This document shows, piece by piece, positions 1,125-20,046 of a DNA stretch of 31,230 nt. The stretch's first letter is position 1. Each line of letters begins with the position of its first letter. A program made the translations under genes and the position numbers. The stretch comes from a virus (lineage: Duplodnaviria > Heunggongvirae > Uroviricota > Caudoviricetes). The DNA lies in IMG/VR virus record IMGVR_UViG_2526164634_000010, positions 1-31,230 of that record, one strand, 5' to 3'. The notes below the pieces were generated by a model. That model did not search any database and was not told the origin of the DNA. It worked only from the letters and a program-made list of their open reading frames with translations.

Positions 1125-2528
1125 TTGAGAATGCCGCGCACTGTAACACATAATCCGGATAGCCCCAATAATGACGATGTTTTAGCCGCTTCTGAAAAAT
1201 GGGACGCCTGTAAACCCCCCTATACTAGCGCACACATGAAAATCTGTGTTGCTGCCGCCAAAATCATCCTCGCTGCTTCCGGCGTGGCTCGCCGTTCCAA
1301 ATACGAAAAAGAGAACTATCTCCGTATCGATTTCAGCAAAGCCGGTAAGGTTACATTTTACGCCGAGTTTCCAAAAAAGATGGGCCTCAAAGGTAAAAAG
1401 CTCGGCGAGTGGCCGGAGCTCGCTATCCAGCTGGCGCGCGAAAAAGCGCTAGGTATGGCTGACGGTGGCCTGCGGGCAGAGTCCGTACATGCAGCGCTGG
1501 AAATGTACCGGGATGACCTCAAAGCCAAAGTCGCCCGGCAGAAGCTGAGCCCGGACAGTTTCACAACCTACGGGGTGCGTATCGACCGGATTAAAGCAAC
1601 GTTCGGCGAGCGCGAGGTGTTCAGCGACGTAACATACAATCGGCTGGTGGAAGTGCTGGACGAGTGGATCGCTACTCGCTCGAACAATAACGCCCTGGAG
1701 TTGTTTGCCGAGCTCCGTCGGTTCTGGAAGTTCTGCGCACCTACTCTTTGCAACGGCCGCAATGTTGCCGCCAGTCTGCCAGATGATTATGTTTCCTCCC
1801 GCGTACAGAAACCTACCCCCACACGGCTTTTTACCGATATTGAATCAATCGCCCGACTCTGGCTCAATGTTGCTGCCTGCACCTCTGTACACCAGAAGAA
1901 TGCTGTTCGCTTCATGATCATCACTGGTGTTCGTCCGATTAATGTCCATAACCTGCGCTGGGACTACGTTCACGAGGAGGCTGGTGAAATTGTTTATCCG
2001 GAAGGGGTTATCGGCATGCGAGGGGCTATGAAAACACAAAAGGCTTTCCGCCTGCCGATAACCCCTGAGATCCGGCGGATTATCGACGAGCAGAAAGCCT
2101 GGCGTGATTCAGTTCCTGAGTGCAACAGGGATTATGTATTTTTGCAGCCACGTGATCCAATGCAGCCATTTTCAAAACGATCACTGGATAAGCTGGTGAA
2201 AACATACAGCCCGGACGGGGCTGTAAAAGGAATAAAACATGATGGGACTGTTAAAGGGAAAGACGGTGCATTTAATACGATGTGCCGTAAATTCCTTAAG
2301 AGCAATGTTATTGCCTTGATGAAGGAAAGAGGCTATTCCCGCTCAGACCGAAGGGAAATCAGCCTCCTTTGCCTTCACCACTCCAGCAAGTCAGATGACC
2401 CGATGGCAGAACATTACGACTTTTCTGATGAGATTTTACAGGAAGAGATTGCGTTGAAGCGCGAAGCTTTCGAGGCTCACGAGCGGAGCATACTTGCGCA
2501 GGTGGCATTGCTACGGCGGCGAGGTTAA
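1125..2528 (+). CDS. phage tyrosine-type site-specific recombinase/integrase (divergent family)
   Basis: 467-aa ORF with AAGGA RBS 7 nt upstream; box I-like segment ITGVRPINVHNLRWDYV; box II-like C-terminus MCRKF...LLCLHHSSKSDDPMAEHY with Arg and terminal Tyr retained but the usual His residues substituted; first gene next to the host junction. Confidence 0.65.
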   Translation: MRMPRTVTHNPDSPNNDDVLAASEKWDACKPPYTSAHMKICVAAAKIILAASGVARRSKYEKENYLRIDFSKAGKVTFYAEFPKKMGLKGKKLGEWPELAIQLAREKALGMADGGLRAESVHAALEMYRDDLKAKVARQKLSPDSFTTYGVRIDRIKATFGEREVFSDVTYNRLVEVLDEWIATRSNNNALELFAELRRFWKFCAPTLCNGRNVAASLPDDYVSSRVQKPTPTRLFTDIESIARLWLNVAACTSVHQKNAVRFMIITGVRPINVHNLRWDYVHEEAGEIVYPEGVIGMRGAMKTQKAFRLPITPEIRRIIDEQKAWRDSVPECNRDYVFLQPRDPMQPFSKRSLDKLVKTYSPDGAVKGIKHDGTVKGKDGAFNTMCRKFLKSNVIALMKERGYSRSDRREISLLCLHHSSKSDDPMAEHYDFSDEILQEEIALKREAFEAHERSILAQVALLRRRG

Positions 2529-2725
2529 TACTGGCTGCGACATTTTTGAATAAAAGCGTCGATATTTCGGCGCTCATAACGAACTACTTTTGCACTGAAA
2601 CGAATTGGTGCCAGGATAGCCCGATGACGATGCTTAATATTCCACTCACATAGCGTTTTCTGTGTAATACCTAACTTTTGGCATACTTCATCCGGGGTGA
2701 GTAAATCGTCGGGTTTCTCGCTCAT
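2525..2725 (-). CDS. AlpA/Xis-like small HTH DNA-binding protein (excisionase or regulator)
   Basis: 66-aa ORF; motif LLTPDEVCQKLGITQKTLCEW resembles AlpA/excisionase-type HTH; start overlaps helicase stop, suggesting translational coupling; adjacent to integrase. Confidence 0.6.
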   Translation of the reverse strand: MSEKPDDLLTPDEVCQKLGITQKTLCEWNIKHRHRAILAPIRFSAKVVRYERRNIDAFIQKCRSQY

Positions 2726-4116
2726 GCTATACCTCTCTTTTTCATGGCATCGAGCAGGATGTCCTGCACTGTTCGTTTTGAGTTGCGCCGCTCCATCACC
2801 ATTTCATCCATAGTGTCGGCAGCAATAATGTGGTGAATAAATACCGGACGATTGTGTCCGGCCTGTATCTGCCTGGTGGGGCCGATACGTTCAATAATTT
2901 GCTGATATTGCTCCAGGTCCCACCAGTGTGAGAAAAATACCAGTATATTTCCGCCGTCCTGCATGTTCAGGCCGTGGCCCGCGCTGGCTGGGTGTGCAAA
3001 GAGAACAGGAATCTTTCCGGAATTCCAGTCGCGCAGTGTCTGTGGATCCTGGTCGAGGTGACGACCGCGAGGGAATGCTTTAAGCAAGCGTTCAAGATCG
3101 TGTTTCCAGTGATAAGCAACCAGCACAGGTGCGCCAGCTGCTTCGGTCAGTATGCTGTCCAGCGCCTGTAGTTTGGTGTCATGCAGTTCTGACCAACTTC
3201 CGGTGTCATCTGTGTATACTGCGCCGCTGGCGATTTGCAGACACTTCAGTGTCTTTGCCGCGGCGTTCGGTGCTTCGATGCCTTCGCCATTCAGCTCGAG
3301 GAACATTTCCTTTTCCATTTCACGATACTGCTGACGGGCCTTCGGTGGCATATCCACGCGGATTACGTTATGGATGGGGTCTTTGATATCGAACCAGTCG
3401 GCCGCATCCAGCGAGAGGGTTACATCGGCTAACGCTCGCTGTATTTCACCCTGTGAGTGAGCAAAAGGCTCCAGTTTGGTCCAGCTCTGCCCCGGAAACT
3501 GTATCGAGTTGAACCAGCGTGAGGTAAACGCGCCGTAAGTGCGCCCGAGACGTTGCCCCTGGTCCACAAACCACGATTGTCCCCACAAATCTACCAGGCC
3601 GTTCGGTGCTGGCGTACCGGTGAGATTTATCCAGCGCCGGACATACTTATGCGCCACTTTGCCCAGCGCCGCCGCGCGCTTACCACCACCGCGCAGCCGG
3701 AAGGATTTTAGCCGGGTGCTTTCATCTGGAATGACAGTACCGAACGGCCATCGTTCTCCCAATTCTTCAATCAGCCAGACAAGGTTATCGTAGTTGATGG
3801 TGAACACGCTTGCGTTGCTGTTCGTCAGCGCCATAGAGCGCGCTTTGGCATTACCAATAATTGGCTGCACCTCGATATTGCGCAAATGTCCCCACTTCAG
3901 TGCTTCATCCGGCCATGTGCTGGCAGCCACGCGCAGCGGCGCGAGGACCAGTGCGGGGCATGTTTCTGCCCCTGCCATAAAGAGATCTTCCAGCGCAGTG
4001 AGCGTTGCCACGGTTTTACCCATTCCCATACCCGCCCAGATGTTGCCGCGCAGAATGTTAGTTTGGTGATTGATTATGAGGTTTTGATAAACTCTGGGGT
4101 GGAATATGCTATTCAT
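2722..4116 (-). CDS. SNF2-family DNA helicase / ATPase (phage replication)
   Basis: 464 aa; Walker A AGMGMGKT; DExx-type motif II VIPDESTRL; AGGTG RBS upstream of ATG at 4116. Confidence 0.85.
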   Translation of the reverse strand: MNSIFHPRVYQNLIINHQTNILRGNIWAGMGMGKTVATLTALEDLFMAGAETCPALVLAPLRVAASTWPDEALKWGHLRNIEVQPIIGNAKARSMALTNSNASVFTINYDNLVWLIEELGERWPFGTVIPDESTRLKSFRLRGGGKRAAALGKVAHKYVRRWINLTGTPAPNGLVDLWGQSWFVDQGQRLGRTYGAFTSRWFNSIQFPGQSWTKLEPFAHSQGEIQRALADVTLSLDAADWFDIKDPIHNVIRVDMPPKARQQYREMEKEMFLELNGEGIEAPNAAAKTLKCLQIASGAVYTDDTGSWSELHDTKLQALDSILTEAAGAPVLVAYHWKHDLERLLKAFPRGRHLDQDPQTLRDWNSGKIPVLFAHPASAGHGLNMQDGGNILVFFSHWWDLEQYQQIIERIGPTRQIQAGHNRPVFIHHIIAADTMDEMVMERRNSKRTVQDILLDAMKKRGIA

Positions 4117-5659: not shown

Positions 5660-5685
5660 ATAAAAAACCCCGCGATGCAGGGTTG
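5660..5685 (-). terminator. intrinsic terminator after the TIR/SLOG-like gene
   Basis: On the minus-strand RNA: CCCUGC-AUC-GCGGGG hairpin (one G-U pair) followed by UUUUUU; immediately 3' of the ORF ending at 5706. Confidence 0.5.
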
Positions 5686-5705: not shown

Positions 5706-6467
5706 TTACGAGGAAGCGTTAGCTATTTGAGCTTGTGTAAATTCGAAACCAGAATTTTGTAACCGTTGCACTAGACGAGGAACTGTTTCACGTACATGGT
5801 CGTTGAAATTCAGATACAAAATCCCGTTAGCATCAGAAGGCTGTTCTAGGTGCTGTTTCTGAAGGATTGCTACATTGCTGCGCCCTAAGGACGAAAGAAG
5901 CATACCCATCTCGAGTACAACGTTCTGTCTTGCGCGGGGTTGGATTTCTGCTTCACCGGCGCGCTTTGAGTATCCCATATCATCAGGTGTCAAAAGAACA
6001 ATCCCGAAACGGGTAGCAGTTTGTCCTTGCCCAATTTCACGTTCAAGCTCTTCAATAATGGTGAGTCCAGTCCCTCCCGTATTCTGCAAAATGAAATGGT
6101 CTGGTAATCCAAGTTTATGAAGGATTAGCTCAAGTTGCTCCTTTGCAGTATGGTCATGGCCGTGAACAATGAATATCTTTTTGGGGAGCTCAGATGGCTG
6201 TTCTACGGCTAGTGGTGTTGCCGTGGGCGGCGTTCCTAAATGGGTCATTATTGCAGTTTCAACATTGGGACGTTCTTGAGGGTTACCTTGAAACTGAATG
6301 GTCCGGGTGGTGTAAAGGTTAACAATTACGCCATTCGTTAAACGATAGCAGTCACAAGTCTCACGCTGTTCGTGGGAAAAATTGGTGAACCCACACTCCC
6401 TCAAAAAGTCAGGAAAAGTTTCTCTCGGGTATGGATAGGTGATCGGCATTTCAGTTAGTTCCTGCAT
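5706..6467 (-). CDS. two-domain protein: unknown N-terminal domain + C-terminal TIR-like/SLOG-like Rossmannoid nucleotide-processing domain
   Basis: 253 aa; C-terminal half has KKIFIVHGHDH (strand-1 motif of TIR-like COG4271-type proteins), GGTGLTIIEELE (LOG/SLOG-like) and RQNVVLEMGMLLSSLGRSNVAIL (xNVxxExG motif); N-terminal ~95 aa unrecognised; AGGAA RBS; cotranscribed downstream of the DNA polymerase gene. Confidence 0.6.
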   Translation of the reverse strand: MQELTEMPITYPYPRETFPDFLRECGFTNFSHEQRETCDCYRLTNGVIVNLYTTRTIQFQGNPQERPNVETAIMTHLGTPPTATPLAVEQPSELPKKIFIVHGHDHTAKEQLELILHKLGLPDHFILQNTGGTGLTIIEELEREIGQGQTATRFGIVLLTPDDMGYSKRAGEAEIQPRARQNVVLEMGMLLSSLGRSNVAILQKQHLEQPSDANGILYLNFNDHVRETVPRLVQRLQNSGFEFTQAQIANASS

Positions 6468-6531: not shown

Positions 6532-8595
6532 TCAATCTTTTTTGTAGTGGTACGCCTCAAAACCGCCAGCGTTCAGTGGGATATCGGGCGCCCATTCGGG
6601 GTCAGTGGAGAGAAGCGCGGAAAGCGCTTTATCGTTGAAATCTTCTGTGTCAGGTGCTTCGGTGATCACCTCGTTGTGTACCGTCAGCACAATGCTGTAA
6701 CCGGCATCTTCGATAAGCGGCATGTTTCCGGCCAGAATGTCGCGGGCGGCCGCCTGGGTGATGTTCTCCACCAGCTTTCCGCCGTAGGTTTTGAGTCGTT
6801 GCCATTTACGCGAATAAGAGTTAACCCCCATGTAGGTGATATTCCCTTTTTCGATAACCGGAGACGGGTAGCATACAGCGCGTCCGGATGGTAGCTGTAT
6901 GCGCAGCCACGCGCCATCGCGGCGGATTTTAAGATAACCGCAATACAATGTTTTTTGCGGTGTGGCGATTGCAGTGCGGACGGTGCGCTCCAGTTCGTAC
7001 CAGAAATCACAGGTCGCGGGATGCGCCCGGCGCCAGAGACGTTTAAGTGAGTCGCAGGCGATAAATACCCGTTCAGAAAGCCCGTAGGTTGACTTGCGTT
7101 TAACCGATTCGTCGTACCAGCTTTTCGCCTCGCGGATAACATCGCGGGGAATGTTTGGTAGTGCGGCGTTCGCCAGCTCGTCGAGATCGAGACCGTAAAC
7201 CAGTGCAAAAGTGATGAAGGCCGACACACCACCACCATAACCCAGACCGAGTTCCATGACTTTACCGATCTGACGCATGTGTTTATCAACATCATCTGGT
7301 GCAATATCGAAAGCTTTTGCATACGCCAGTTTATATAAGTCCGGACCCGTTCCGGCGTCGTACTCTCTGAATGCATTCAGTTTCCATTCTTCTCCCGCCA
7401 GCCATGCCAGCATACGGCCTTCAATGTTCGACAAGTCACTTACCACCAGCTTTTTGCCTGTTGGCGCGATAATGCAGCCACGTAACGCTGAACTGGTTAG
7501 TTCCATGATATTGTCAAACAGCAGGTCTGCACATCCGGCTTTCAGTGCTTCGATGCCTTCGTCTATTTGTTCCTGTTTTAGTGAAGGGCGGGGAAGGTTC
7601 TGGGGCTGGAATAGCCGTCCGGCCCAACGACCGGTACGTGACGCCCCGCAGAACTGTAGCGTACCGCGTAAGCGCCCGTCGTGGCTTACGCCTTTCATCA
7701 GTGCCTTGTATTTACTGGTGCTGGTAGTACTGGCCTGCAGGCGGATAGCCAGCAGTTCTTTCACGGCAGATGGTAAATCGGGGTCGGCAATACGACGTTC
7801 CAGAGTACTGCGTTGCATGTCTGGTAGCTCCACACCGTAGGATTCAACAATGTGCTTAATCAACGCGTCTCGTTGTGTGGCTGCCTGCACTTCGCCATCA
7901 GTCATTTCCTGTGTACGCTTTGCCAGGCGCTTTTGTTCCTGGTCTACCGCGTCGATCGCAGCGCGTGCGAGTTCCACGTCCATGCAGACGCCCCGGTCAT
8001 TGATCTGCTGATCACGATGCCAGAGCGCCAGTTCTGTCCCCTGATAATTCCACTTCGGCAGACGTTTATAGACTTCGCGCATTGCCTCGATATCCAGTCC
8101 GGCGTAAGCAACAAAGCGCCGCCATTCTTCCGGGTGGGTTTTGCTGGTGGCCCGGCGCAGTTTGCTGTTTTTCGGGCGTGGCTTACAGAACAGCTGGATC
8201 AGCGCTTTACCTTCTTTGTCCTTCGCTTTGTCTTGCGGGACGCCTAGTACTTCGCAGAGTTCCCCCAGAGACCCCGGGAGACCGTGCGCCAGCGCCTGCA
8301 CCATTGTGTCGCGCCAACGTTCGACTGGCGGTGCCAGGCGCGGCATTGCATAACGCAGAACGGTGCGGTCGAAGTGAGAGTTATGGAAATAAAGCAGGGT
8401 TTCAGGGTCTGCGATTGCTTCGTATAAGCCGTGTGGAATACCACCACCGGCAGTGATATCCCACACGTTTACTGGCCCGTCGTTGATAGCCCATGCGAAA
8501 AGCATCACTTCAACGCCTTCGGCATACGCATGGGTACCGTTCGTAATAGGGATTTCGCAATAGGTTTCCAGGTCGCCCCATAGTATATTGGACAT
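6532..8595 (-). CDS. family A DNA polymerase with N-terminal 3'-5' exonuclease domain
   Basis: 687 aa; exo motif GDLETY; pol motif [16 protein letters not shown] (RxxxKxxxxGxxYG); motif C-like VHNEV. Confidence 0.9.
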
Positions 8596-8641: not shown

Positions 8642-9271
8642 ATGCATATGATCCAATACTTGATTGACCATACAGAGCATCTGGAGAAAATAGCTGGATA
8701 TATTTTTTCATGTTTGATTGTTATGGGAGTCTGGATAAGAAAGATCATTTTTAATTATAAGTATAAAGAGCCTAAATATGTTAAGAAGTTAATTTTATAT
8801 TTAGTTAAGTATGAACGTTATCTGGATGAGGAGGATAAGAGTGCCATAGAAAAAAGAATAAATGATAAAATTATTCGTGATGCGCTGAAATTGCAATCAT
8901 CTTATAACCGAAGAGATGTTATTTACATTTGCAATAGATTAGAAAAAAGACAGTATATAAATCAGTTGATTAAGCTTCAGAATTATATAGAGAAAGATAA
9001 CGGAGTGTTTTTTATTAATGTTGATTTTTCAGGTTTTTTATTTATTATTAGTCGTCTGTTTTCCTTTCTGTGTTTTGTGCTGTTTACCCTTTTTTCTATT
9101 ATCTGCATTATTTCCATAGGGCAAAATGAAGGCCTTTTAAATTATCTTGTGTATATGGTTATGATAATAGTTTTAGAGACTGTTGGTTTTTGGATGTATG
9201 ATACTTTCCCGTCTAAGAAAAAGATCTGTGAACTAAATAAAGAATTGAGAAAGATTAAGATTCCTGAGTGA
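8642..9271 (+). CDS. low-GC moron: hypothetical membrane protein
   Basis: 209-aa ORF, very AT-rich; hydrophobic N-terminal segment and two C-terminal hydrophobic segments around a Lys/Glu-rich region; opposite strand to flanking replication genes; no family recognised; start uncertain (ATG 8642 or 8648). Confidence 0.5.
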   Translation: MHMIQYLIDHTEHLEKIAGYIFSCLIVMGVWIRKIIFNYKYKEPKYVKKLILYLVKYERYLDEEDKSAIEKRINDKIIRDALKLQSSYNRRDVIYICNRLEKRQYINQLIKLQNYIEKDNGVFFINVDFSGFLFIISRLFSFLCFVLFTLFSIICIISIGQNEGLLNYLVYMVMIIVLETVGFWMYDTFPSKKKICELNKELRKIKIPE

Positions 9272-9323: not shown

Positions 9324-9872
9324 TTAAATTAGTGCTTCAGCATCAGCACCTTCGCTGATATCGTCGAAATCGTCAGCGCTTGCCACTCCGCCGCCAGCGA
9401 ATGCATCGCCGTCTCGCAGGAACTGGACTCCGCCGAGTGAGGCATTAATGCGTTTACCGAAATTATTGTCCTGTGCCCAGATATCGATAACGGCGTTTAC
9501 ATAGCACCCTGCATAGGGACGTCCGTCAGCCTGAATAAGTGGCGAACGATCGCGATCAAGAACAGCTGGGCGCGCTTTGTTAGCAGCATTCAGGAAGAAA
9601 TTACCGGGGAAGCCTTCATACTCTGCTTTTTCATCACCATCATGCAGGCACAGATTGAGTTTTTTCTCCAGCTGGTTATAAATGGGCTCCCACTTCTCTC
9701 CCCATTTTTCCTTCGCTACCTGCTTCATAGCTTTACGGATTTCTTCCAGTTGTGGGTGTTTGGGAGACATTAAAAATACTGCGGAGAAACGCGGATCGCC
9801 TTCGCCGTTTACAGTTTTAGCTTCAAACAGAGACGGGAAGGCCAGACGAACATTGTTCAGCTTCAGTTTCAT
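9324..9872 (-). CDS. DUF2815-like phage protein (possible ssDNA-binding role)
   Basis: 182 aa; position next to a DUF2800-like nuclease and family A polymerase matches a recurrent phage replication module; family assignment from memory, not searched. Confidence 0.5.
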   Translation of the reverse strand: MKLKLNNVRLAFPSLFEAKTVNGEGDPRFSAVFLMSPKHPQLEEIRKAMKQVAKEKWGEKWEPIYNQLEKKLNLCLHDGDEKAEYEGFPGNFFLNAANKARPAVLDRDRSPLIQADGRPYAGCYVNAVIDIWAQDNNFGKRINASLGGVQFLRDGDAFAGGGVASADDFDDISEGADAEALI

Positions 9873-9887
9873 GGGTATTTCCTTAAA

Positions 9888-11189
9888 TCAGATGAGGTCT
9901 GCGGTTAGCGTATCGTCGGATACGTCGTCGAAATCATTTACAGGGTTGATATTGAGTGCGGGGCGTGGGTCTGACTCGGGAATGACGGTTGGTTTACCAT
10001 CAGCTCGTGTTATCAGTGCCTCGACTTTTGACCAACGGCGTGGACTGGCCTTTTTGATAAGTTTTTCGGCTTTTGTGGGACTAATAAGTTTAAAGTCGAA
10101 TACTTCTTCAGTTTTGTACCTGAACTGGTCCTTCAGAAGTGCGCGAGCTGCCTCTTCATCACTCCAGGCCCGGTTACCTTGTTTTCCTGTTACCAGTTTA
10201 AACCCCGGTACCGGATGTCCGGCATTGAGTTCATTGTGAACCCGGTCCCGTACTGCCTTTAGCCAGGATTCAATAAAGTCGGCCTGGCTATAGATCTCCG
10301 CAAGCTGCTCAATGGTTAACAGAGGTACACGTGCGCTGGCATTGGTGATTATTTCGCTGACAGGCTTTGTCAGATCTTCAAAATCGCTGGCCGCTGTTTG
10401 TAAATGCTGCATTTTCTGGGCAGTGCAAATAGCTTTTGCTTTACAGAAGCGGCACTGTTTTTCTCCAGGTATGAAGTTTTCCAGCGGTAGTGTCTCAATG
10501 CCTTCGCATTCAGCAATATTGAGAACAAGGATCGCACTGGTTGCGGCCTCCTGTGCCCGTTCACCGAAAGACTGAAGTTCCTGTACGGTTAACGACCATT
10601 CTGAAACGTGGTTGAGCCTTGGCTGGTGAATAAATAATCTTACAGTCTCAAAGTCATACAGCATGCTGAATTGTTCGAGCGCACCCAGAGCATACAGTTG
10701 TAGTTGCTCATTTTGTTCTGCATCAATGCGGACGCCTTTGCCATATTTCAGGTCGTGGATTTGTAATTCGTTACCAGCGATGATTATGCCGTCGGCAGTT
10801 CCGAAAGATTCTTCCACCCCCGTTATATGTGAGAAATCAACACGTTGTTCAACCAATAGTTCATTATTCTGTGCAAGAGTCCAGACCGTATCAACATACC
10901 GGCCAACGGCTTCGACCATTTCATCATCCACCTGTGGGCCAGATGTATCATCAGGATTTTCGCGAAGGGGGTATGAGCCGAGAAACATAGAAACATTGCA
11001 TCCGGCGTAGTGTTCCGGGTGGCTTTGCCTGTTTCGTAGAACTTTTTCAGCAAGCGCGTGCGCTGCAGTGCCCTCGATTGCAAAAGTTGTTTCTTTATCC
11101 GGTTGTGTGGCCTCCAGCGCCAGACTTCCTGGGCAGCGCATCCATCGATGCGCTGATGATGGAGAAAGTTGTGCATGAACGTCTGGCAT
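9888..11189 (-). CDS. DUF2800-like PD-(D/E)xK nuclease with C-terminal Cys cluster (Cas4/RecB-like)
   Basis: 433 aa; N-terminal [15 protein letters not shown] signature; Cys cluster [10 protein letters not shown]. Confidence 0.65.
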
Positions 11190-11191
11190 GA

Positions 11192-12094
11192 TTAACCCTC
11201 CAGTGCTTTTTCAGCCAGGGTGATTACTTCAGCGAGATTTTCATCCGTTACTTCACCAAGTTTCCTGGCTCCCTGTTTTTCCAGAATTGCAATAGCTTCT
11301 GCCCGGTAACCCCCTTTTGCTAACTGGAGGATCAACCCTTCAGCTTGTTTGCGTAGTGCCGCGAAATCAATTGTATGGTCATCTTTGGCGTCATTATTCT
11401 GGCTGGAATTTGCTGCGTCTCTGCGTGCAAATTCTTCCTGCAGCTGAAGGTACTCAACACGGTTGATCTCGATATGGCCTTTTTTAAGCATCTCGTTCAA
11501 CTTGCGTAAGGTGTGGAGTTCACTGGCTGCTGTGCCGGATACATTTTTGACGTAAAACGGCCCCGTGCGTTCTCCATCTTTGTTACTGGCCTTTTTCGGC
11601 TTAACTTCATCACGCCCATCTGCAGGTGCATCAAGTAGTTGCTCGGCAAAAGCACGTCGCTCGCCGATGGTTGGCAGGTCGTCCCAGAACTTAAGAATGT
11701 TACGGGACAGGTCCAGAAGAGCGGGTTTATGCAGTGCCCTGGCTCGTTTGACGCCCTGCAATGCGCTGTCGAGAGGATCAATCTGAACTACTCGTTTATC
11801 GCCTTCAGCATCACGGTAGGCAACAGCACGTTGCAGCATGTCTTCTGTGATAGGGGTGGCTACCGGGTAGAAACCAGCCAGTGCGATAACGTCGCTGAAC
11901 TCCAGATCATCCAGTGTCATTGCCGCTGACATATTTTCAGTTTCAGTTGCTGTATCCCGACATTCCTGCACTCGTGAAATCGTGTCAGGATGCATAACAA
12001 TACCTGATGCCATTGTGCGGATAAGACGTTCAAGCAGCGCATTATGTTGTGCCAGAAGTTGATTATTAAGTTCGAGACTGGTTTCTAAACTCAT
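11192..12094 (-). CDS. hypothetical phage early protein
   Basis: 300-aa ORF in the leftward operon; acidic/Lys-rich central region; no family recognised; start overlaps stop of upstream small ORF. Confidence 0.55.
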
Positions 12095-12240
12095 ACTGTG
12101 GTCCTCGCAACAAGGAGAATGAAAGTGATGATCAGACCGAGCGCAGTGGCAACGGCCAGACCGGTCATCAAATCGAAGTTTTTACGGCGATAACGGAGAA
12201 CATCGCGCCCCGTCAGTCGATAGAGGTGTTCAGGTTTCAT
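12091..12240 (-). CDS. small membrane peptide (49 aa), translationally coupled to the downstream gene
   Basis: Manual read: ATG at 12240 (AAGGA upstream), [52 protein letters not shown] overlapping the next ATG; basic N-terminus plus one C-terminal hydrophobic helix; below the ORF-track cutoff. Confidence 0.4.
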   Translation of the reverse strand: MKPEHLYRLTGRDVLRYRRKNFDLMTGLAVATALGLIITFILLVARTTV

Positions 12241-12299
12241 CGGTTGTATTCCTTTTTTCATATCGGGGAGCGCGCTGTTGCGAGTGCGCTTTCAGACAT

Positions 12300-12326
12300 A
12301 AAAAAGCCCGTCACTTGCGGCGGGCA
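12300..12326 (-). terminator. intrinsic terminator after the first pL-proximal gene
   Basis: Minus-strand RNA GCCCG...CGGGC stem followed by UUUUUU. Confidence 0.5.
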
Positions 12327-12356
12327 AAGACTACACACAGCAATTACATGGATGAT

Positions 12357-12551
12357 TCAGTTGGTATTGTGCGTACGTGGTACCACAAGGTTGAAGCGGA
12401 CACGCCAGTGCGTTGCAATGGTATGCAGGAAAGCACCACATCCAGGGCAGTGCTCATAACATTCGTTGATTTGGTATCGTTTTGGCTTTGGTGTCTGAAG
12501 CTGTGTTTGGCAAGCAGGGCATTCACCTTTGAGCGGTTTATATGTTTTCAC
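12357..12551 (-). CDS. small zinc-ribbon protein, first gene of the leftward early transcript
   Basis: 64 aa with GTG start and GAGGAA RBS; CPAC...CPGC motif; Lys/Arg-rich; followed directly by a terminator. Confidence 0.5.
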   Translation of the reverse strand: MKTYKPLKGECPACQTQLQTPKPKRYQINECYEHCPGCGAFLHTIATHWRVRFNLVVPRTHNTN

Positions 12552-12718
12552 GCCGTTTCCTCATTCAGTTCACTTTGGTGGTTCGGCGGCTTCGACTTGT
12601 ATCAGTAGGCAGTGCTTCGCCGCACCCCAAAGGGAACTTACTGACCCGTATTGCCGACATCCTGTCCCGCCACGGTCCCGACGCATGGTTTAGAGTCGCG
12701 CCGTTCGACTTGTGGCTA

Positions 12719-12747
12719 AAGATACAATTTGAGTTGTATTGTGTAAA
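12719..12747 (-). promoter_or_regulatory. candidate leftward early promoter (pL-like): TTTACA-N17-TATCTT with operator-like GTTGTATT motif
   Basis: -35 (12747-12742) and -10 (12724-12719) read on the minus strand; the GTTGTATT motif at 12733-12740 also occurs twice in the cI-cro intergenic region. Confidence 0.35.
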
Positions 12748-12832
12748 CCGCAAACGTGGTATTTTGTGGGGTGTGAATACTACTTTATTGATATTTAAGT
12801 GAATTTAATTTGTAAGACTTTACAAATGGGGT

Positions 12833-12854
12833 AAGGGAGGCTGTTACGCCTCCC
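12833..12854 (-). terminator. hairpin 3' of the cI-like gene
   Basis: Perfect 7-bp stem gggaggc/gcctccc with 6-nt loop directly after the repressor stop; weak U-rich tail on the minus strand. Confidence 0.35.
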
Positions 12855-12873
12855 GATATTTACGGTGGGAATA

Positions 12874-13497
12874 CTAACGTTTACGGCGGTAAATACGGTG
12901 TTCGATCATTACACCTATGATCTGTAAGTTCATATCTGCACTACGAAAAATAGGGTAATCAGGATTTAGGGGGATTAATTCAAAGTCGTCGATGCCGATT
13001 CCTAATGGACGGTATTTTTTAAATGTAGCTTCGTGACCGTCGTTTTTGGCGACAACAAACTCCCCTGGTGCAGGACATAGATCAGGATCGATGATAACAA
13101 TGTCTCCTTCTTTAAACTCTGGTTGCATGCTGTCGCCATCAATACGTAATGCGAAGCATGTTTCTGGAATGTCAGAGTCTGCCAAAATATATTCAAATTC
13201 CCCTGTCAGATCTGTTATGTCTCTTGCTTCTGTAAGCTCTCCTGCCTGAACGTAACTTAATATAGGTATGCGTCTGGTACTTATCTCCGCGAGAGGCATA
13301 ATATTTTTACCGTTCAGTAGCCAGTCTGGGCTACATTTCAAGGCCTTAGCCAGATCCAGAAGATTGCGTGGCTTTCTGGTTCGTCCACTTTCGATGGATT
13401 CTATGGATTGTTGGCTAACCCCTGCAGAATTCGCTACTTCCACTTGAGTCATTCCTAATTCCAAACGACGTGCTTTAAAACGGGCTGCGAGAGACAT
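12874..13497 (-). CDS. CI-like repressor (N-terminal HTH + C-terminal S24 LexA-like peptidase domain)
   Basis: HTH MTQVEVANSAGVSQQSIESIESG; S24-type C-terminal region (FALRIDGDSMQPEFKEGDIVIIDP); start set at ATG 13497 with AAGGA RBS rather than the longer track ORF. Confidence 0.85.
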   Translation of the reverse strand: MSLAARFKARRLELGMTQVEVANSAGVSQQSIESIESGRTRKPRNLLDLAKALKCSPDWLLNGKNIMPLAEISTRRIPILSYVQAGELTEARDITDLTGEFEYILADSDIPETCFALRIDGDSMQPEFKEGDIVIIDPDLCPAPGEFVVAKNDGHEATFKKYRPLGIGIDDFELIPLNPDYPIFRSADMNLQIIGVMIEHRIYRRKR

Positions 13498-13617
13498 GGG
13501 ATTAGTCCTTCTGGGTTGTATTAATGTGTATACCCACATTAAAAACAATTTTTGTTGTATTTGACAAACCTCATTTGTTGTTGCTAAATACCACTAAAAT
13601 TGTATGAGGTGAAAGCA
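13498..13617. promoter_or_regulatory. divergent immunity promoter/operator region
   Basis: TTGACA at 13561-13566, 17-bp spacer, -10-like ctaaat; repeated GTTGTATT/TTGTTG motifs; lies between divergent repressor and cro-like genes. Confidence 0.5.
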
Positions 13618-13830
13618 ATGACCTTAGCGACCCGAGTAAAAGAACGACGTAAAGAACTCAAAATGACGCAAGTTACGTTGGCTGAGCTCACAGGAGTGAG
13701 CCAGCAGGCAATAAACAGAATTGAAAGTGGTGTTATTGCTCGGCCACGTTATCTTCTTGAAATGTCTATAGCATTGGATTGCGACCCTAATTGGCTGTTG
13801 TATGGCTCACAAAACGATAAAAAGGCTTAA
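13618..13830 (+). CDS. Cro-like HTH regulator
   Basis: 70 aa from ATG 13618 (GAGGTG RBS); HTH MTQVTLAELTGVSQQAINRIESG; divergent from the repressor. Confidence 0.75.
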   Translation: MTLATRVKERRKELKMTQVTLAELTGVSQQAINRIESGVIARPRYLLEMSIALDCDPNWLLYGSQNDKKA

Positions 13831-13833
13831 CCC

Positions 13834-16026
13834 ATGTCCGATAGCAAACCATGGGGAGCTACGCCTGATGAGTGGTTTCATTTCGACCTGGTATTGGGGA
13901 GAACTGATCATCTTCTCCCAGTTGTATGTAACCCCGGTGCGACCATATCCCCTGATAGTAAACTGAAAGCGCTGGGTAAGACGCCAAGTCGCTATAACCG
14001 GGACCGCCAGGTCACCGGTATTGCTCAATGGACCGGGTATGTTGTTACTGAGCATGATTTTGCCCGCTGGTCGAATGAACCGGATTATGGCATCTGCGTG
14101 CGTACAGGCCATGGCTGGCTGGCGCTGGACTGCGATAGCGAAGATGAAGACATTCAGGCAGATATTCGCAAAACGCTTGTGCAACTTCTGGGGGAGTTGC
14201 CGCCGCGACGCTGGCGAGCAAACAGTAATAAGTGTCTGTATCTGCTGGCCGTTGATGGTGATTTCTGTAAGCGTATCCATCGCCTGGCGGGGGATATGGG
14301 CATTATCGAGTTGCTGGCGAACGGGCAGCAGTTCGTTGCCTGTGGTACGCACAGCAGCGGCGCGCGTATTGAATGGGACGGTGGTTTGCCGGATGAACCT
14401 CCGGCTATTACTGGTGAGCAGCTTGAAACGCTGTGGCAGCGCCTGGCTGAACAACTCCCTGTGTCGGTAACCACCGAAGCGGGCAACACGAAGATGCGCG
14501 ACCGATCAGCATTCACGCCCGGCGCGACGGATGATACAGCTGAATATCTTGATGCCAATGGCTGGACGCTGCTGGATGGCGCAAATGGTGAACGATATAT
14601 CCGCTGTCCGTTTGAAGACGGCCACAGTAGCGGGGGCGATCCAACAAGCACAGCTTATTTTCCTGCGGGAACCGCGGGCTTTGAGCAGGGGCATTTTAAA
14701 TGCCTGCATGCCAGTTGTGCGCATCGTGATGACGGAGATTTCCTTAATGCCATCGGGATCCGCAACGACGATTTCGAAGATCTGACCAGCACCGAAGTGG
14801 CGGAACCTTTACCGCTGCCTGCTTTCGAGCGTGATAAATGGGGGCGTATCGAGGCAACCATCAGCAACGCAGCCAAAGCAGTAGTACGCCCTGATTTTGT
14901 GGACATCGATATTCGCTTTGACCAGTTCCGCGACGAAATCATGTTTGCCTCTGCAGGATCCGGACAATGGCGAGCATTCACCGATGCGGATTATGCGCGC
15001 CTGCGCATCACGATGGAAAAGCGGGGATTTAAACCTGTTGGTCGTGAACTTATTCGCGATGTGGTGTTACTTGCAGCCGATGAACAACCATTCGATTCAG
15101 CGATTACCTGGCTGAACGGGCTGGAGTGGGATGGCGTGCCGCGCATCGAATGTTTCTACCATACGCACTTCGGTACAGCCGACACGCCTTATACCCGTGC
15201 GGTGTCTATGTACATGTGGACCGCGTTGGCGGGGCGAGTACTGGAGCCAGGCATCAAAGCGGATATGGTGCCGATCCTCGTTGGTCCGCAGGGCTGCGGT
15301 AAGTCTTCCGGAGTGGAGGCACTGAGCCCTGATCCTGCGTTTTTTACTGAAATCTCTTTTGCCGAAAAAGACGATGATCTCGCTCGAAAAATGCGTGGTC
15401 GGCTGGTGGCAGAGATTGGTGAACTGCGCGGACTTAATACCAAAGAGCTGGAGTCAATCAAAGCGTTTGTGACGCGTACTCACGAAAACTGGATCCCGAA
15501 ATACCGGGAGTTCGCCACCCAGTTTCCTCGTCGCCTGGTGTTCGTTGGTACCACCAATGAGGACGAATTCCTTGCGGACAAGACTGGTAACCGTCGCTGG
15601 CTCCCCGTGGAAGTGTCGAAAGTCGACGTGAAAGCGATAAAAAGAGATCTCCTTTTACTTTGGGCTGAGGCTCGTGAGGTGTTTCAGCGTCTGGGGGGTA
15701 TCCAGTTCCGTGAGGCTGAACAACTGGCAGCGAGTGTCCATGAACAGTACACCATCAAGGATGCTTGGCTTGAAACGGTAGAGAAATGGCTCGACACGCC
15801 AGACCTGATGACTAATGAACTTCCGCGAAATTGCGAATTTTTACGCGCAAGTGATGTTTTGCGTGATGCGATTGGGCTAAATCCTGACCGCATCGGAAAA
15901 CGCGAAGAAATGCGAATTAGTAATGTTTTGCAAAATTGCGGGTATAAGCGTGCCCAAAGGCGAATTGGGGGGAAAATGACTCGAATTTTTGAGGCGGTGT
16001 CCCAACCTGTACCAGCCTCAAAATAG
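13834..16026 (+). CDS. replication protein: primase-polymerase N-terminal domain + P-loop NTPase (VirE/D5-like)
   Basis: 730 aa; Walker A VGPQGCGKS; Cys/His-rich segment CPFEDGHSSGG...HFKCLHASCAH; directly downstream of cro. Confidence 0.8.
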   Translation: MSDSKPWGATPDEWFHFDLVLGRTDHLLPVVCNPGATISPDSKLKALGKTPSRYNRDRQVTGIAQWTGYVVTEHDFARWSNEPDYGICVRTGHGWLALDCDSEDEDIQADIRKTLVQLLGELPPRRWRANSNKCLYLLAVDGDFCKRIHRLAGDMGIIELLANGQQFVACGTHSSGARIEWDGGLPDEPPAITGEQLETLWQRLAEQLPVSVTTEAGNTKMRDRSAFTPGATDDTAEYLDANGWTLLDGANGERYIRCPFEDGHSSGGDPTSTAYFPAGTAGFEQGHFKCLHASCAHRDDGDFLNAIGIRNDDFEDLTSTEVAEPLPLPAFERDKWGRIEATISNAAKAVVRPDFVDIDIRFDQFRDEIMFASAGSGQWRAFTDADYARLRITMEKRGFKPVGRELIRDVVLLAADEQPFDSAITWLNGLEWDGVPRIECFYHTHFGTADTPYTRAVSMYMWTALAGRVLEPGIKADMVPILVGPQGCGKSSGVEALSPDPAFFTEISFAEKDDDLARKMRGRLVAEIGELRGLNTKELESIKAFVTRTHENWIPKYREFATQFPRRLVFVGTTNEDEFLADKTGNRRWLPVEVSKVDVKAIKRDLLLLWAEAREVFQRLGGIQFREAEQLAASVHEQYTIKDAWLETVEKWLDTPDLMTNELPRNCEFLRASDVLRDAIGLNPDRIGKREEMRISNVLQNCGYKRAQRRIGGKMTRIFEAVSQPVPASK

Positions 16027-16027
16027 A

Positions 16028-16182
16028 GGTTGGTACATTTTAACTAATTGAATTTAAAGGTCAGTACCAACTGTACCATCTGTACCAACCTAATTACTAA
16101 GAACCCCATATATATATATAAGTCGCTTGGGGAAAAGGTTTGAAAAGAGCTGGTACAGGTGGGTACAGATTGGTACAGGCCG
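16028..16182. repeat. iteron cluster, candidate phage replication origin
   Basis: GTACCA at 16064, 16073, 16082 (9-bp spacing) and inverted TGGTACAG/GGGTACAG at 16151, 16161, 16171 (10-bp spacing) flank a (TA)7 tract at 16108-16121; a further tggtaca at 16031; immediately downstream of the primase gene. Confidence 0.5.
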
Positions 16183-16307
16183 AACAAGGAATTTTTTGCA
16201 CATAACAGCGTGTAATAAGCGAATCGGAACTGCGTTATCCACACCCACGGATAAACAGACGTGGTTCTCAGAAAATTTTTTCGTAGCAAAACGTAGAGGT
16301 CAGAGCT

Positions 16308-16730
16308 ATGCGTAATATTCAACAGGTTTTAGAGCGCTGGGGTGGCTGGGCAGCGAGTGAAGGTGGTAGCGTCTACTTTCCTCCTGTTGCAGCCGGGTTT
16401 AAGAATCTGCTACCCGCGACGCAGTCTGGAAGGCTGAAATGCAGTGACAATGACGGTCTTATCATCAACTCCGCTATGAGCTGCCTGAAGAAAAAAGATC
16501 CGTATCTGTGCACGCTCCTTGAGTGGCATTACGTCCAGGCCATGCCCGTGCGGGCGATGGGTGAGAAGCTCGGCGTATCTCACACCCACGTTCTGAAGAG
16601 GCTTCAGGCGGCAGAGGGATTTATTGACGGTTGCTTAGCCATGCTGGATGTGGTGCTCGAAATGGATCAGTCGGTTCAGTCAAAGCCTCAGGCTATCAGG
16701 ACTTTGCGTAGGAGCTGCTCGGCGGCATAA
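16308..16730 (+). CDS. Q-type late antiterminator (phage 82/QuuD-like)
   Basis: 140 aa; N-terminus MRNIQQVLERWGGWAA, AAGFK and RLQAAEGFIDG segments resemble remembered Q82-family sequences; located upstream of the lysis cassette. Confidence 0.7.
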   Translation: MRNIQQVLERWGGWAASEGGSVYFPPVAAGFKNLLPATQSGRLKCSDNDGLIINSAMSCLKKKDPYLCTLLEWHYVQAMPVRAMGEKLGVSHTHVLKRLQAAEGFIDGCLAMLDVVLEMDQSVQSKPQAIRTLRRSCSAA

Positions 16731-17457: not shown

Positions 17458-19029
17458 TTACTGAGAGGTCAGATCAACTTTCCAGGGCAACAGATCGCGT
17501 ACCCGGTTTGCCGGCCAATCCTGGATATGCTCAATGACGTAACGCAGCCATTTTTCTGGTTCCACATTGTTCAGACGGCATGTGCCGATCAGCGAGTACA
17601 ACACCGCCGCATGTTCGCCACCGCTGTCGGAACCCGCGAACAGCCAGTTTTTCCGGCCTACGGCCACTCCCCGTAAGGCGTTCTCTGCGATGTTGTTGTC
17701 GATTTCCACCCAGCCATTACTGCAGTACACGTTCAGGCCATCCCACTGTTTCAGCAGGTATGCGAACGCTTTTGCCGTATCCGAGTGACGCGACAGTGTT
17801 TTCATCTGAGTCTGTATCCAGTCATACAGTGACTGCATCAGTGGCGCAGCTCTGGCTTTTCTTGCCGCCAGACGCTGTTCTGCTGTACATCCCCGGACTT
17901 CTGCCTCTATGGCATACAGTTCACCGATACGCTGCAGGGCTTCCGTGGTGATGTCGGTGGGCACTCTTGCATGCACATCGTGGATTTTTCTCCGGGCATG
18001 AGCCATACACGCGGCTTCCGTTATTCTGCCGGATTCGTATAACACCCGGTAACCACCGTAAGCATCGGCCTGAAGCACACCGCTGTAACCGGCCAGATGA
18101 TTTTGTGGATGGATACCTTTCCGGTCCGGTGAGTACGCGAACCAGACCGCCGGGGGCATTTCCGAACCGGCGTTACGGTCATCACGGACGTAGACCCACA
18201 GCCGGGCGGTCCGGGTTTTACCGCTGCCCGGCTCCTGGACCGGGACGGGGATATCATCAGCATGGACTTTACCGGGCATCAGCACATACTGGCGCAGGAC
18301 GTCATACAGCGGCTCCAGCAGTTCAGCAACGGCACCTGTCCAGCGCCCCAGCGTGGCGCGGCTCAGCTCCACGCCCTGGCGACGGTATATTTCTGACTGG
18401 CGGTATAACGGCAGATGGTCTGCATATTTCCCGGTAACAACATGGGCCAGAAGCCCCGCTCCGGCATAACTGCGTGCAATGGGTTTTGAAGGTACTGTTG
18501 CCTGCACGATATGGTCGCACCGACAACAGGCCAGTTTCGGACGTTGTGTTTCGATAACCTTAAAGGCGCTGCTGATAAGCTCCAGTTGCTCTGACACATC
18601 ACACCCCAGAGGACTGAGGTCACCACCACAGGCCGGGCAGCATTCCTCTTCCGGCCGGATGACCCGGGTTTCACGGGGAAGTGAGGCCGGTAACGGTTTA
18701 CGGGCTGAAGACTGGCGCAGGGCGGATGGCAGTACCGGGTCATATTGCTCACCCAGCGTTTCCGCCATTTCTTCCTGAAGTGCGCTGATTCGCTCCTGTG
18801 CTTCCTGTATCTGCCGTTCGGTTTTAGCGCGAAGTTTTTCTGAGCTTTTACCGAACTGCATGCGCTGCAGTTTCGCAACCAGCGCCTTCAGCCGGTTGAT
18901 TTCGGAAGCATAAGCCGCCACCCGCTGTGAGAGCAGGCGGTTGTATTTCGCCATCTGGCGGATGGTGTCCTGTTGCGTCTGCAACAGTGCCCGCAGGCGG
19001 GCATTCTCATGAGCAAGTGAGGTGTCCAT
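17458..19029 (-). CDS. IS66-family transposase TnpC (orf3)
   Basis: 523 aa; N-terminal coiled-coil, Cys motif CPACGG...CCRCDH and catalytic core typical of IS66 TnpC. Confidence 0.8.
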
Positions 19030-19048
19030 ATCCTCACTTTACAACGGG

Positions 19049-19396
19049 TTATATGCGGATGCCAGCGCGTTCCGTTCGTTTCGGGTGCTTCCAGTCGATG
19101 CCTTCGAGAAGCATGGACAACTGAGCCGGAGTAAGGTGAACCTTTCCATCGCGGGTGACCGGCCAGACGAAGCGGCCCCGCTCCAGGCGTTTGGTGAAGA
19201 GGCACAGTCCGTCACTGTCAGCCCACAGCACTTTTATCTGGTCACCCCGGCGTCCGCGGAAGATGAACAGATGCCCGGAGAACGGGTCATCCTTCAGGAC
19301 GTTCTGAACTTTTGAGGCCAGGCCGTTAAAACCATTTCGCATATCGGTGATACCGGCAACCAGCCAGATACGCGAACCGGCAGGGAGAGATATCAT
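19049..19396 (-). CDS. IS66-family TnpB (orf2)
   Basis: 115 aa; MISLPAGSRIWLVAGITDMRNGFNGL matches the remembered IS66 Orf2 family. Confidence 0.8.
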   Translation of the reverse strand: MISLPAGSRIWLVAGITDMRNGFNGLASKVQNVLKDDPFSGHLFIFRGRRGDQIKVLWADSDGLCLFTKRLERGRFVWPVTRDGKVHLTPAQLSMLLEGIDWKHPKRTERAGIRI

Positions 19397-20046
19397 CAGT
19401 GGCTGCTCCCTTTCATTTCGCGGATAAGTGTCTGTAATAACGCCGGTGTCAGTTCACCTTTCAGCCTGAGAGTTCCGGCCGGCAGAACCAGCTCGCAGCA
19501 CAGACTGTCTGGCAGTGTATTTATCTGTTCAGGTATCTGCACTGGTGCCGGGATTTTATTATCCGGCTCCGGAGTTAACGTCACGGGAAGTAGCGATGTT
19601 TCATGTTCGCCGGGCGGTTGCAGGCCACCGTTACGCCAGAGATGCCGCCAGTTAAAGAGCAGGTTATCGTTAATTCCATTCTCTCGAGCTATTTGTGCGA
19701 CACAGGCACCGGGTAAAAGAGTTTGCTGAACCAGTCTCCATTTAAACTCCGGTGAAAATCGGTTCCGGCGGGGTTTCTCTGCTTTCACAGGCTGAGTCAC
19801 GGTCGGGGCTGAAGGGTATCGCCCCGGGAAAAGAGCCCGGGCCAGTTGCCCGCAGGAATATTCACCGGAAAGAGGCCAGTCAGTGAATACCTGGTGAAAT
19901 CGCCTCACCAGAGAAAAAATGGCGGTTTTGCTGACACCAGTCTGCGCAGAAATGCGCGGGTACGACAGTGACTCGTCAAATCTCAGCTGTAGCACACGCA
20001 GGATCAATTCTGGATTATCTGCCAGTACCGCTTTTCGTGCATTCAT
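19396..20046 (-). CDS. IS66-family TnpA (orf1), HTH protein
   Basis: 216 aa; first ORF of the IS66 operon; overlaps orf2 start. Confidence 0.7.
   Translation of the reverse strand: MNARKAVLADNPELILRVLQLRFDESLSYPRISAQTGVSKTAIFSLVRRFHQVFTDWPLSGEYSCGQLARALFPGRYPSAPTVTQPVKAEKPRRNRFSPEFKWRLVQQTLLPGACVAQIARENGINDNLLFNWRHLWRNGGLQPPGEHETSLLPVTLTPEPDNKIPAPVQIPEQINTLPDSLCCELVLPAGTLRLKGELTPALLQTLIREMKGSSH

Follow-up and report, generated by a model that had tools for sequence, protein, structure and literature searches.

We found that the early-left control region of an Escherichia coli prophage very probably uses put antitermination of the type known from phage HK022. The prophage was analyzed as a stretch of 31,230 nucleotides (nt) of viral DNA (Caudoviricetes; IMG/VR record IMGVR_UViG_2526164634_000010), which we call the window and which is 100% identical over 2 kb to E. 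coli strain FDAARGOS_1059. A homologue of the HK022 RNA putL lies just downstream from a candidate leftward promoter, pL, that is covered by a probable operator. It is followed by a long leader hairpin, a first gene that differs between related prophages, and a terminator-like hairpin, tL, that is homologous to the 3' part of the host small RNA RprA. An earlier reading of the window, made from its letters alone (the sequence-only reading), had placed a hairpin, a promoter, an untranslated leader, an open reading frame (ORF) for a 64-amino acid (aa) CxxC protein, and a hairpin with a U run on the minus strand of this region. We recovered each of these where it had been placed. In the direction of transcription, the features of the control region are:

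12835 to 12854, minus strand: GC-rich hairpin, 20 nt past the cI stop codon (GGGAGGC at 12854-12848, a 6-nt loop, and GCCUCCC at 12841-12835).
12719 to 12747, minus strand: candidate pL promoter, TTTACA-N17-TATCTT (-35 at 12747-12742, -10 at 12724-12719).
12722 to 12739: probable operator OL, the perfect palindrome ATACAATTTGAGTTGTAT (ATACAA-N6-TTGTAT), which covers the spacer and -10 of pL.
12643 to 12710, minus strand: antiterminator RNA of the putL type, corresponding to positions 3-72 in HK022 putL.
12567 to 12638, minus strand: long hairpin of 72 nt between put and the ribosome-binding site (free energy, dG, -28.6 kcal/mol; z -2.6).
12557 to 12562, minus strand: Shine-Dalgarno sequence GAGGAA, common to alternative first ORFs.
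12357 to 12551, minus strand: ORF64, a 64-aa protein with a CxxC...CxxC pattern (C11/C14 and C35/C38, and in addition C31); GTG start, with GAGGAA 5 nt upstream.
12300 to 12345, minus strand: tL and the preceding AAUUGCUGUGUGUAGUCUUU, homologous to the 3' (processed) part of RprA.

The leader RNA is a homologue of HK022 putL in sequence and in structure. This agrees with the suggestion in the sequence-only reading that a put-type RNA might provide read-through. We compared the region to 50,697 phage records using blastn. The leader was 79% identical to the annotated HK022 putL over 85 nt (E 2e-9 in a sensitive search). Its only matches were putL of HK022, HK75 and O276, the putL-like element of HK639, and counterparts without annotation in phiEt88 and in several phages of Salmonella. 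The promoter and put were collinear with those of HK022 in the alignments. Judging from the HK022 alignment, transcription would start at about 12713-12711, giving a leader of ~160 nt up to the GTG at 12551. Put begins ~7-9 nt past the -10 of the operator-covered pL and is upstream of the terminator-like sites at 12325-12300 and 5684-5660. The variant of put in the window was found in ~30 of the scanned viral contigs and in no deposited phage genome among the 50,697 records, in which the best matches were 78-84% identical.

An exact-pattern scan of IMG/VR gave 118 loci, and 23 distinct putL-type sequences were used to make a covariance model, R1. The window scored 92.3 bits (E 3e-24) at 12637-12715 on the minus strand. 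Reference scores were 100-103 bits for putL of the HK022 type, 82.6 bits for the putL-like element of HK639, and 42-45 bits for putR. At gathering thresholds, Rfam had no match anywhere in the window, and put was unmatched even at E values up to 10; Rfam appears to have no put family. In addition, a prophage of Enterobacter bugandensis, reached independently through a homologue of ORF64, has the same architecture and a put without a single difference over 68 positions, next to an ORF that is 81% identical, with dS of ~0.6.

The structure of put is also conserved. The helices of HK022 put are known from the cryo-electron microscopy (cryo-EM) structure of the put-polymerase complex: A3-G7 with C15-U19, C10-G14 with C30-G34, and stem II, G36-C72 (PMC9378689). 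We mapped these helices onto the alignment of the 23 putL-type sequences. In that alignment, 96.5% of the cells were paired and six pairs had changed on both sides. The covariation score was 0.201, compared to 0.061 for shuffled alignments, and none of 500 shuffles reached it. Controls in which the 3' partner was slid scored no higher than 0.062. Covariation of the leader fold across related prophages had been put forward as a check by the sequence-only reading, and the compensatory pairs were indeed there. In a set of 70 distinct sequences, putL and putR together, 97% of cells were paired, 10 of 17 pairs had changed on both sides, and the score was 0.357 compared to 0.111, in an alignment that was fitted to the model and hence is biased towards the structure. 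Between the window and HK022 there were three compensatory swaps: 5-17 (A-U to U-A), 38-70 (G-C to C-G) and 41-66 (C-G to U-A).

In HK022, residues A9, G35 and U28 and the -10-like AACCAU are functionally important, and are linked to binding of beta' and to sigma-dependent pausing during folding (PMC9378689). The window retains A9, G35, U28 and AACCAU at +23 to +28 (NANNAU). Read-through in this region had initially been ascribed, tentatively, to an uncharacterised mechanism. That description no longer fits, as the leader is a homologue of HK022 putL, for which the mechanism is solved: as it emerges, the RNA binds the zinc-binding domain of beta' in the polymerase transcribing it, which over many kilobases suppresses pausing as well as termination of both the intrinsic and the Rho-dependent kind (PMC9378689).

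Several points weigh against assigning the leader to put. Deletion of U68 abolishes antitermination in HK022 (PMC9378689), and the equivalent bulge in the window is a G; of changes at this position, only the effect of the deletion is known from HK022. Stem II has symmetrically lost one base pair from its upper part in the window. Thermodynamic folding of the single sequence misses the put fold, with z of +0.51 for put and -0.34 for the whole leader. This failure is expected for an RNA that is stabilised by non-canonical pairs and by polymerase, but the folding lends put no independent support. Binding to beta', read-through, and the efficiency of a terminator with a 5-base-pair stem are all inferred. 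Lastly, no putR was found in the window using R1 with filters off, in a search that recovered the putR of all five reference phages, so the arrangement of HK022 is not copied in full. Taking the points on both sides, we conclude from sequence and conserved structure that the leader RNA belongs to the put family and is probably functional.

The lack of putR is shared by other loci of the same type. Among 100 viral loci, nearly all of those with HK022-type putL had a putR match, and none of the window-type loci did. In HK639, R1 found the left element only, with no putR-type element in the right operon. We do not regard putR as defining, because HK639 also lacks it. One additional R1 match in the window (3645-3732, 14.9 bits) is inside the SNF2 helicase gene and is without CGAACGG, AGGAUG and CAAU, and we rejected it as a chance match. 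The right operon (13600-16730, plus strand) contains cro, the primase gene, an iteron-rich intergenic region and Q and, unlike the left operon, is without put; polymerase would have to reach Q there without it.

The candidate pL has 9 of 12 consensus positions in a promoter scan, a scan that by itself is not significant (4 sites compared to 4.3 expected; that is, the chance rate). The pL call is supported because of homology to HK022 pL and because of the palindrome over the spacer and -10. The promoter aligns with the annotated pL of HK022, HK75 and O276 and has the identical TTTACA -35; the -10 of the Enterobacter copy is TAGATT. The overlap of pL with a motif common to the cI-cro operator region, pointed out in the sequence-only reading, was borne out: the motif, GTTGTATT, is a half-site of a recurring palindrome. 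The palindrome has only three matches with two or fewer mismatches in the 31-kb window, the one over pL and two others (13543-13560 and 13588-13605). These two have one mismatch each and are between cI and cro, on either side of a pR-like TTGACA. Based on their sequence, all three palindromes are probable repressor operators. The half-site GTTGTATT is present in five copies (at 12733, 13515, 13554, 12243 and 18940), compared to 1.0 expected. The copy at 12243-12250 is past tL, immediately before the start codon (ATG) of the 49-aa gene, and has no palindromic partner. It may be a chance occurrence.

The hairpin downstream from cI folded better than all 200 shuffled sequences (dG -16.1 kcal/mol, z -3.9) and has no U run. 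Counterparts at this position were seen in the prophage of Enterobacter bugandensis (8 base pairs, of other sequence), in vB_EcoM-606R2, and in HK022 and O276. Identity to the Enterobacter copy is as low as 48% in the cI-distal region, and the hairpin is nonetheless retained. The cI transcript probably ends at this hairpin, which would insulate pL and put from transcripts made from the maintenance promoter.

By homology with HK022, we propose that the control region works as follows. Once the cI repressor leaves the palindromic operator, polymerase would initiate transcription at pL, near 12712. The initial ~70 nt of the transcript (12710-12643) would fold into put, in which a short 5' helix is joined to stem I by a triplex and a pseudoknot and is followed by another stem, which is long. 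This RNA would bind the beta' zinc-binding domain beside the RNA exit channel of its own polymerase and stay bound, and the polymerase would thereby become resistant to pausing and termination. The modified polymerase would transcribe the leader hairpin and the interchangeable first gene (here encoding the 64-aa zinc-ribbon protein), and would read through tL (12325-12300) and later terminators such as that at 5684-5660. About 10 kb of early-left genes would then be expressed: those for a small membrane protein, ORF300, an exonuclease, a single-stranded DNA-binding protein (SSB), DNA polymerase A, a TIR protein and an SNF2 helicase.

The tL hairpin consists of GCCCG (12325-12321), a 10-nt loop, and CGGGC (12310-12306), followed by U6 (12305-12300). 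The stem has 5 contiguous G-C pairs (dG ~-8.2 kcal/mol), and its strength is uncertain. A simple terminator scan with a loop limit of 8 nt missed it. From the hairpin and the U run we infer that tL is terminator-like.

The similarity of tL to RprA had been missed in the sequence-only reading. In the window, AAUUGCUGUGUGUAGUCUUUGCCC is identical at 24 of 24 nt to rprA of E. coli C600, and is followed in both by an equivalent G+C stem and U run (U6). The conserved 3' domain of RprA, that is, single-stranded UUGCUGUGUGUAGUCUUU and a Rho-independent terminator, is present in the module. The module aligns to the annotated chromosomal rprA in 5,421 of 5,426 complete E. coli genomes by blastn, and full-length copies of the phage type are found in ~170 complete E. 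coli genomes (~3%). The stem-loop of the phage module (GCCCGCCUCCCA...) is nearest to that of rprA from Citrobacter youngae and Leclercia. Other phage variants further share AUCCCCUGA(G/A)U upstream, with a linker that is 5 nt shorter. We take AUCCCCUGA(G/A)U to lie in the rpoS-pairing region of RprA. In the window, there is no similarity to rprA 5' of the 24-mer, and the sequence upstream is the end of ORF64.

Unlike RprA, the phage module lies within an operon, where it forms the 3' end of an mRNA, and it is without the 5' stem-loop, a promoter of its own like that of RprA, and most of the rpoS-pairing region. In Rfam, the module matched RF00034 with 48.2 bits (E 1.5e-5 in a permissive scan), compared to a gathering score of 70. 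Four related phage copies scored 48-56 bits, with only the 3' half aligned with high posterior probability. Because all phage copies are below the Rfam threshold, we consider the module, as judged by its sequence, to be a partial homologue of RprA and not an rprA gene. It was considered as an attP remnant, which was ruled out: the integrase gene is ~10 kb away (1125-2528).

The part that is common to the phage module and RprA corresponds to RprAproc, the last 47 nt of RprA. RprAproc is stable and active in vivo, coexists with full-length RprA and has its own specific regulatory activity (PMC9262595). Compared to the Enterobacter copy, the single-stranded 23 nt and the stem and U run of the module are 100% conserved, the loop is identical at 6 of 10 positions, and the flanks are 53-86% identical. 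The module is in 62 viral contigs, only ~27 of which have put upstream, and vB_EcoM-606R2 has the module and the downstream genes without any put. Because it also occurs without put, the module belongs to the 5' edge of the delayed-early block and not to the put module. A full-text literature search found no use of the term 'RprA-like' and, among the titles and abstracts listed, none about a phage homologue of RprA, which is weak evidence of novelty.

It is possible, but in our view doubtful, that the tL module is primarily a small RNA gene, a phage copy of processed RprA that would bind Hfq or titrate the partners of RprA, in addition to the action of put. The 24-nt identity followed by the equivalent terminator, the AUCCCCUGA(G/A)U of other variants, the perfect conservation of the single-stranded part and stem next to a diverged loop and flanks, and the activity of the corresponding part of RprA would all fit with this. 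Against it, the RF00034 scores are below threshold in every phage copy, expression of the module and its binding of Hfq are predictions from sequence, and polymerase modified by put should mostly read through, which would limit the production of this 3' end. The similarity could also have been carried along in an ancient recombination event and retained only for its termination. We tentatively suggest that a captured RprA 3' domain might serve as an Hfq-binding mimic of RprA, acting on host targets or competing with RprA, in an amount that would vary inversely with put antitermination; we would not yet count on this.

It is unlikely that the put-like element is an inactive relic and that antitermination is not needed, with tL being weak or leaky or with a promoter located downstream. 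The 5-pair stem of tL (~-8 kcal/mol), weak promoter-like matches at 12089-12041, and vB_EcoM-606R2 with the same terminator and downstream genes in the absence of put would be consistent with a relic. However, put is completely conserved between the window and Enterobacter amid neighboring sequence that has diverged, the put family has compensatory substitutions, the promoter-like matches occur at the chance rate, and there is an additional strong terminator inside the operon.

The part of the transcript between put and tL is modular. The leader hairpin was compared over 13 variants. Its 19-base-pair base is conserved, with one compensatory pair, and its top is variable (13-47 nt). The hairpin is retained upstream of four different cargo ORFs. 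In related contigs, the same put, leader hairpin, Shine-Dalgarno sequence (except with the 170-174-aa type) and terminator surround an ORF that differs. In place of ORF64 there is a 33-aa acidic peptide, a 64-69-aa protein, or a 170-174-aa protein that weakly resembles a beta-clamp domain. The three shorter cassettes have a start codon 5-7 nt past the shared GAGGAA; the 170-174-aa ORF is preceded by another ribosome-binding region. In the cassettes with ORF64, the 33-aa ORF and the 170-174-aa ORF, the stop codon is inside a conserved CTGAAT(C/A)ATCC, and a similar ACTGAAT precedes the Shine-Dalgarno sequence. In the window, the cassette is bracketed by GAACTGAATGAGGAA before it (12558-12572, minus strand) and AACTGAATCATCC at the stop codon (12350-12362, minus strand). 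Judging from the repeated sequence, the brackets are possible recombination joints for exchange of cassettes.

ORF64 is probably a real gene, as judged by its pattern of substitution. Compared to the Enterobacter copy, the ratio of nonsynonymous to synonymous substitution (dN/dS) is 0.22, and third codon positions account for 16 of the 33 differences. The five cysteines are invariant. ORF64 is not annotated in RefSeq, is frameshifted in one contig, and has homologues in only 3 clusters among 5.8 billion proteins. Family searches gave only sub-threshold zinc-finger matches in Pfam, one weak match in PHROGs and none in PADLOC; a sequence search of the PDB gave nothing better than E 0.14. The mean pLDDT of an AlphaFold2 model was 62.

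The sequence-only reading had offered the zinc-ribbon protein as a candidate read-through factor, and this does not stand. It is highly improbable that ORF64 is an antiterminator acting like N or Q on polymerase or on the leader RNA, with the put-like sequence incidental: ORF64 is the first gene past pL, the position of N in lambda, and is apparently real (purifying selection, conserved cysteines), but prophages with identical put, hairpin and terminator hold unrelated ORFs in its slot (33 aa, 64-69 aa or 170-174 aa), and the ORF is frameshifted in one contig, sparsely distributed and without a family match above threshold. Because put and the terminator are constant while the ORF is swapped, ORF64 is not the read-through factor. 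We regard it as an accessory early gene at the site that nun occupies in HK022.

The control region appears, from its sequence, to work like pL-putL-nun-tL of HK022, and we place its leader in the put family. As in HK022 (and HK75 and O276), put starts a few nt past the -10 of a repressor-controlled pL, has helices 3-7:15-19 and 10-14:30-34 and stem II, and is followed by a first gene and terminators, with no N protein. The window differs from HK022 in the shorter top of stem II, the G bulge in place of U68 and the three compensatory swaps, in having no putR in the right operon, and in a first gene that is not nun. In addition, VapE primase, DNA polymerase A, DUF2800 and the Enc34-type SSB replace the lambda-like O/P and Red functions. 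HK639 is similar to the window in having a putL-type element past pL and no putR-type element in the right operon. It differs in that its put has a different stem II (GUCGGACCAUAGG...), is annotated as 126 nt, and is ~70 nt further from the putative pL. HK639 also has an annotated 'M3-like RNA' (1351-1410) in the right operon, at the place of HK022 putR, and we saw no counterpart of it in the window.

The proposed parallel of this N-less region to lambda pL-nutL-N-tL1 also held. The order is the same: operator-controlled pL, RNA signal, structured leader, small first gene, terminator, and delayed-early genes. The hairpin just upstream of the Shine-Dalgarno sequence in the window recalls, we presume, the RNase III-sensitive leader of lambda N. 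No N-type protein was found among the nine window proteins compared to Pfam, which included every ORF from ORF64 to SSB, or among the six compared to PHROGs. On reading its sequence, the 49-aa product encoded past tL shows no N-like motif; it has a short basic patch and then a membrane helix. No boxA or boxB was noticed on reading the leader, although no systematic search was made. Unlike the lambda N/nut system, the RNA in the window would, by analogy with HK022, act alone on polymerase.

These assignments attach a known and structurally solved mechanism to a control region that was unannotated. They indicate that put antitermination also serves a replication backbone that is not lambda-like, as a single copy in the left operon. 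The natural variants comprise compensatory and non-compensatory changes, such as G at U68 and the shortened stem II, against which the cryo-EM model can be tested. By itself, put is of modest interest; the terminator derived from RprA is the unexpected part. As a phage-borne piece of a core-genome small RNA it may be a new case, and it offers a way into the poorly understood activity of processed RprA. If there is an RprA mimic, then it would be a phage copy of a core-genome small RNA built into an antitermination switch.

The control region heads a leftward operon of ~10 kb that contains most of the replication genes. Parts of the 2-kb stretch shared with FDAARGOS_1059 are in 153 of 5,426 complete E. 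coli genomes, and at least 43 of these have it at near full length (cI to ORF300). The other features of the prophage are:

1125 to 2528, plus strand: integrase gene.
2722 to 4116, minus strand: SNF2 helicase gene.
5660 to 5684, minus strand: second intrinsic terminator, canonical, located past the TIR gene and before that for the SNF2 helicase in the same leftward operon.
5706 to 6467, minus strand: TIR protein gene.
6532 to 8595, minus strand: DNA polymerase A gene.
9324 to 9872, minus strand: Enc34-type SSB gene.
9888 to 11189, minus strand: DUF2800 exonuclease gene.
11192 to 12094, minus strand: ORF300.
12091 to 12240, minus strand: gene for the 49-aa small membrane protein, the first past tL (RefSeq annotation, PHROG 11981, Pfam).
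12874 to 13494, minus strand: gene for a cI-like repressor of the LexA family (stop TAG at 12876-12874).
13600 to 13830, plus strand: gene for a cro-like helix-turn-helix protein.
13834 to 16026, plus strand: VapE primase-helicase gene.
16308 to 16730, plus strand: gene for a Q-family antiterminator.
3' of Q: an IS66 element, then holin and late genes.

In PADLOC, the TIR protein (5706-6467, minus strand) matched PDC-S35, a candidate defence system (E 7e-109), and in Pfam it matched CAP12/Pycsar TIR. Its gene is embedded within the early-left operon, and the canonical intrinsic terminator is 3' of it. A 209-aa ORF at 8642-9271 (plus strand) is opposite to the surrounding leftward operon and has no family match; it may be an independently expressed insertion (a moron). 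A complete element of the IS66 family (17458-20046, three ORFs on the minus strand) is inserted between Q and the holin and late genes, and may disturb late transcription of the prophage.

Between the VapE primase gene and Q, there are ~9 copies of TGTACCA/TGGTACA (15997-16181), in both orientations and often 9-10 nt apart, around a run of ATATATATATA. A hairpin at 16008-16037 was flagged as terminator-like and is more probably part of this array. The iteron array is a candidate replication origin.

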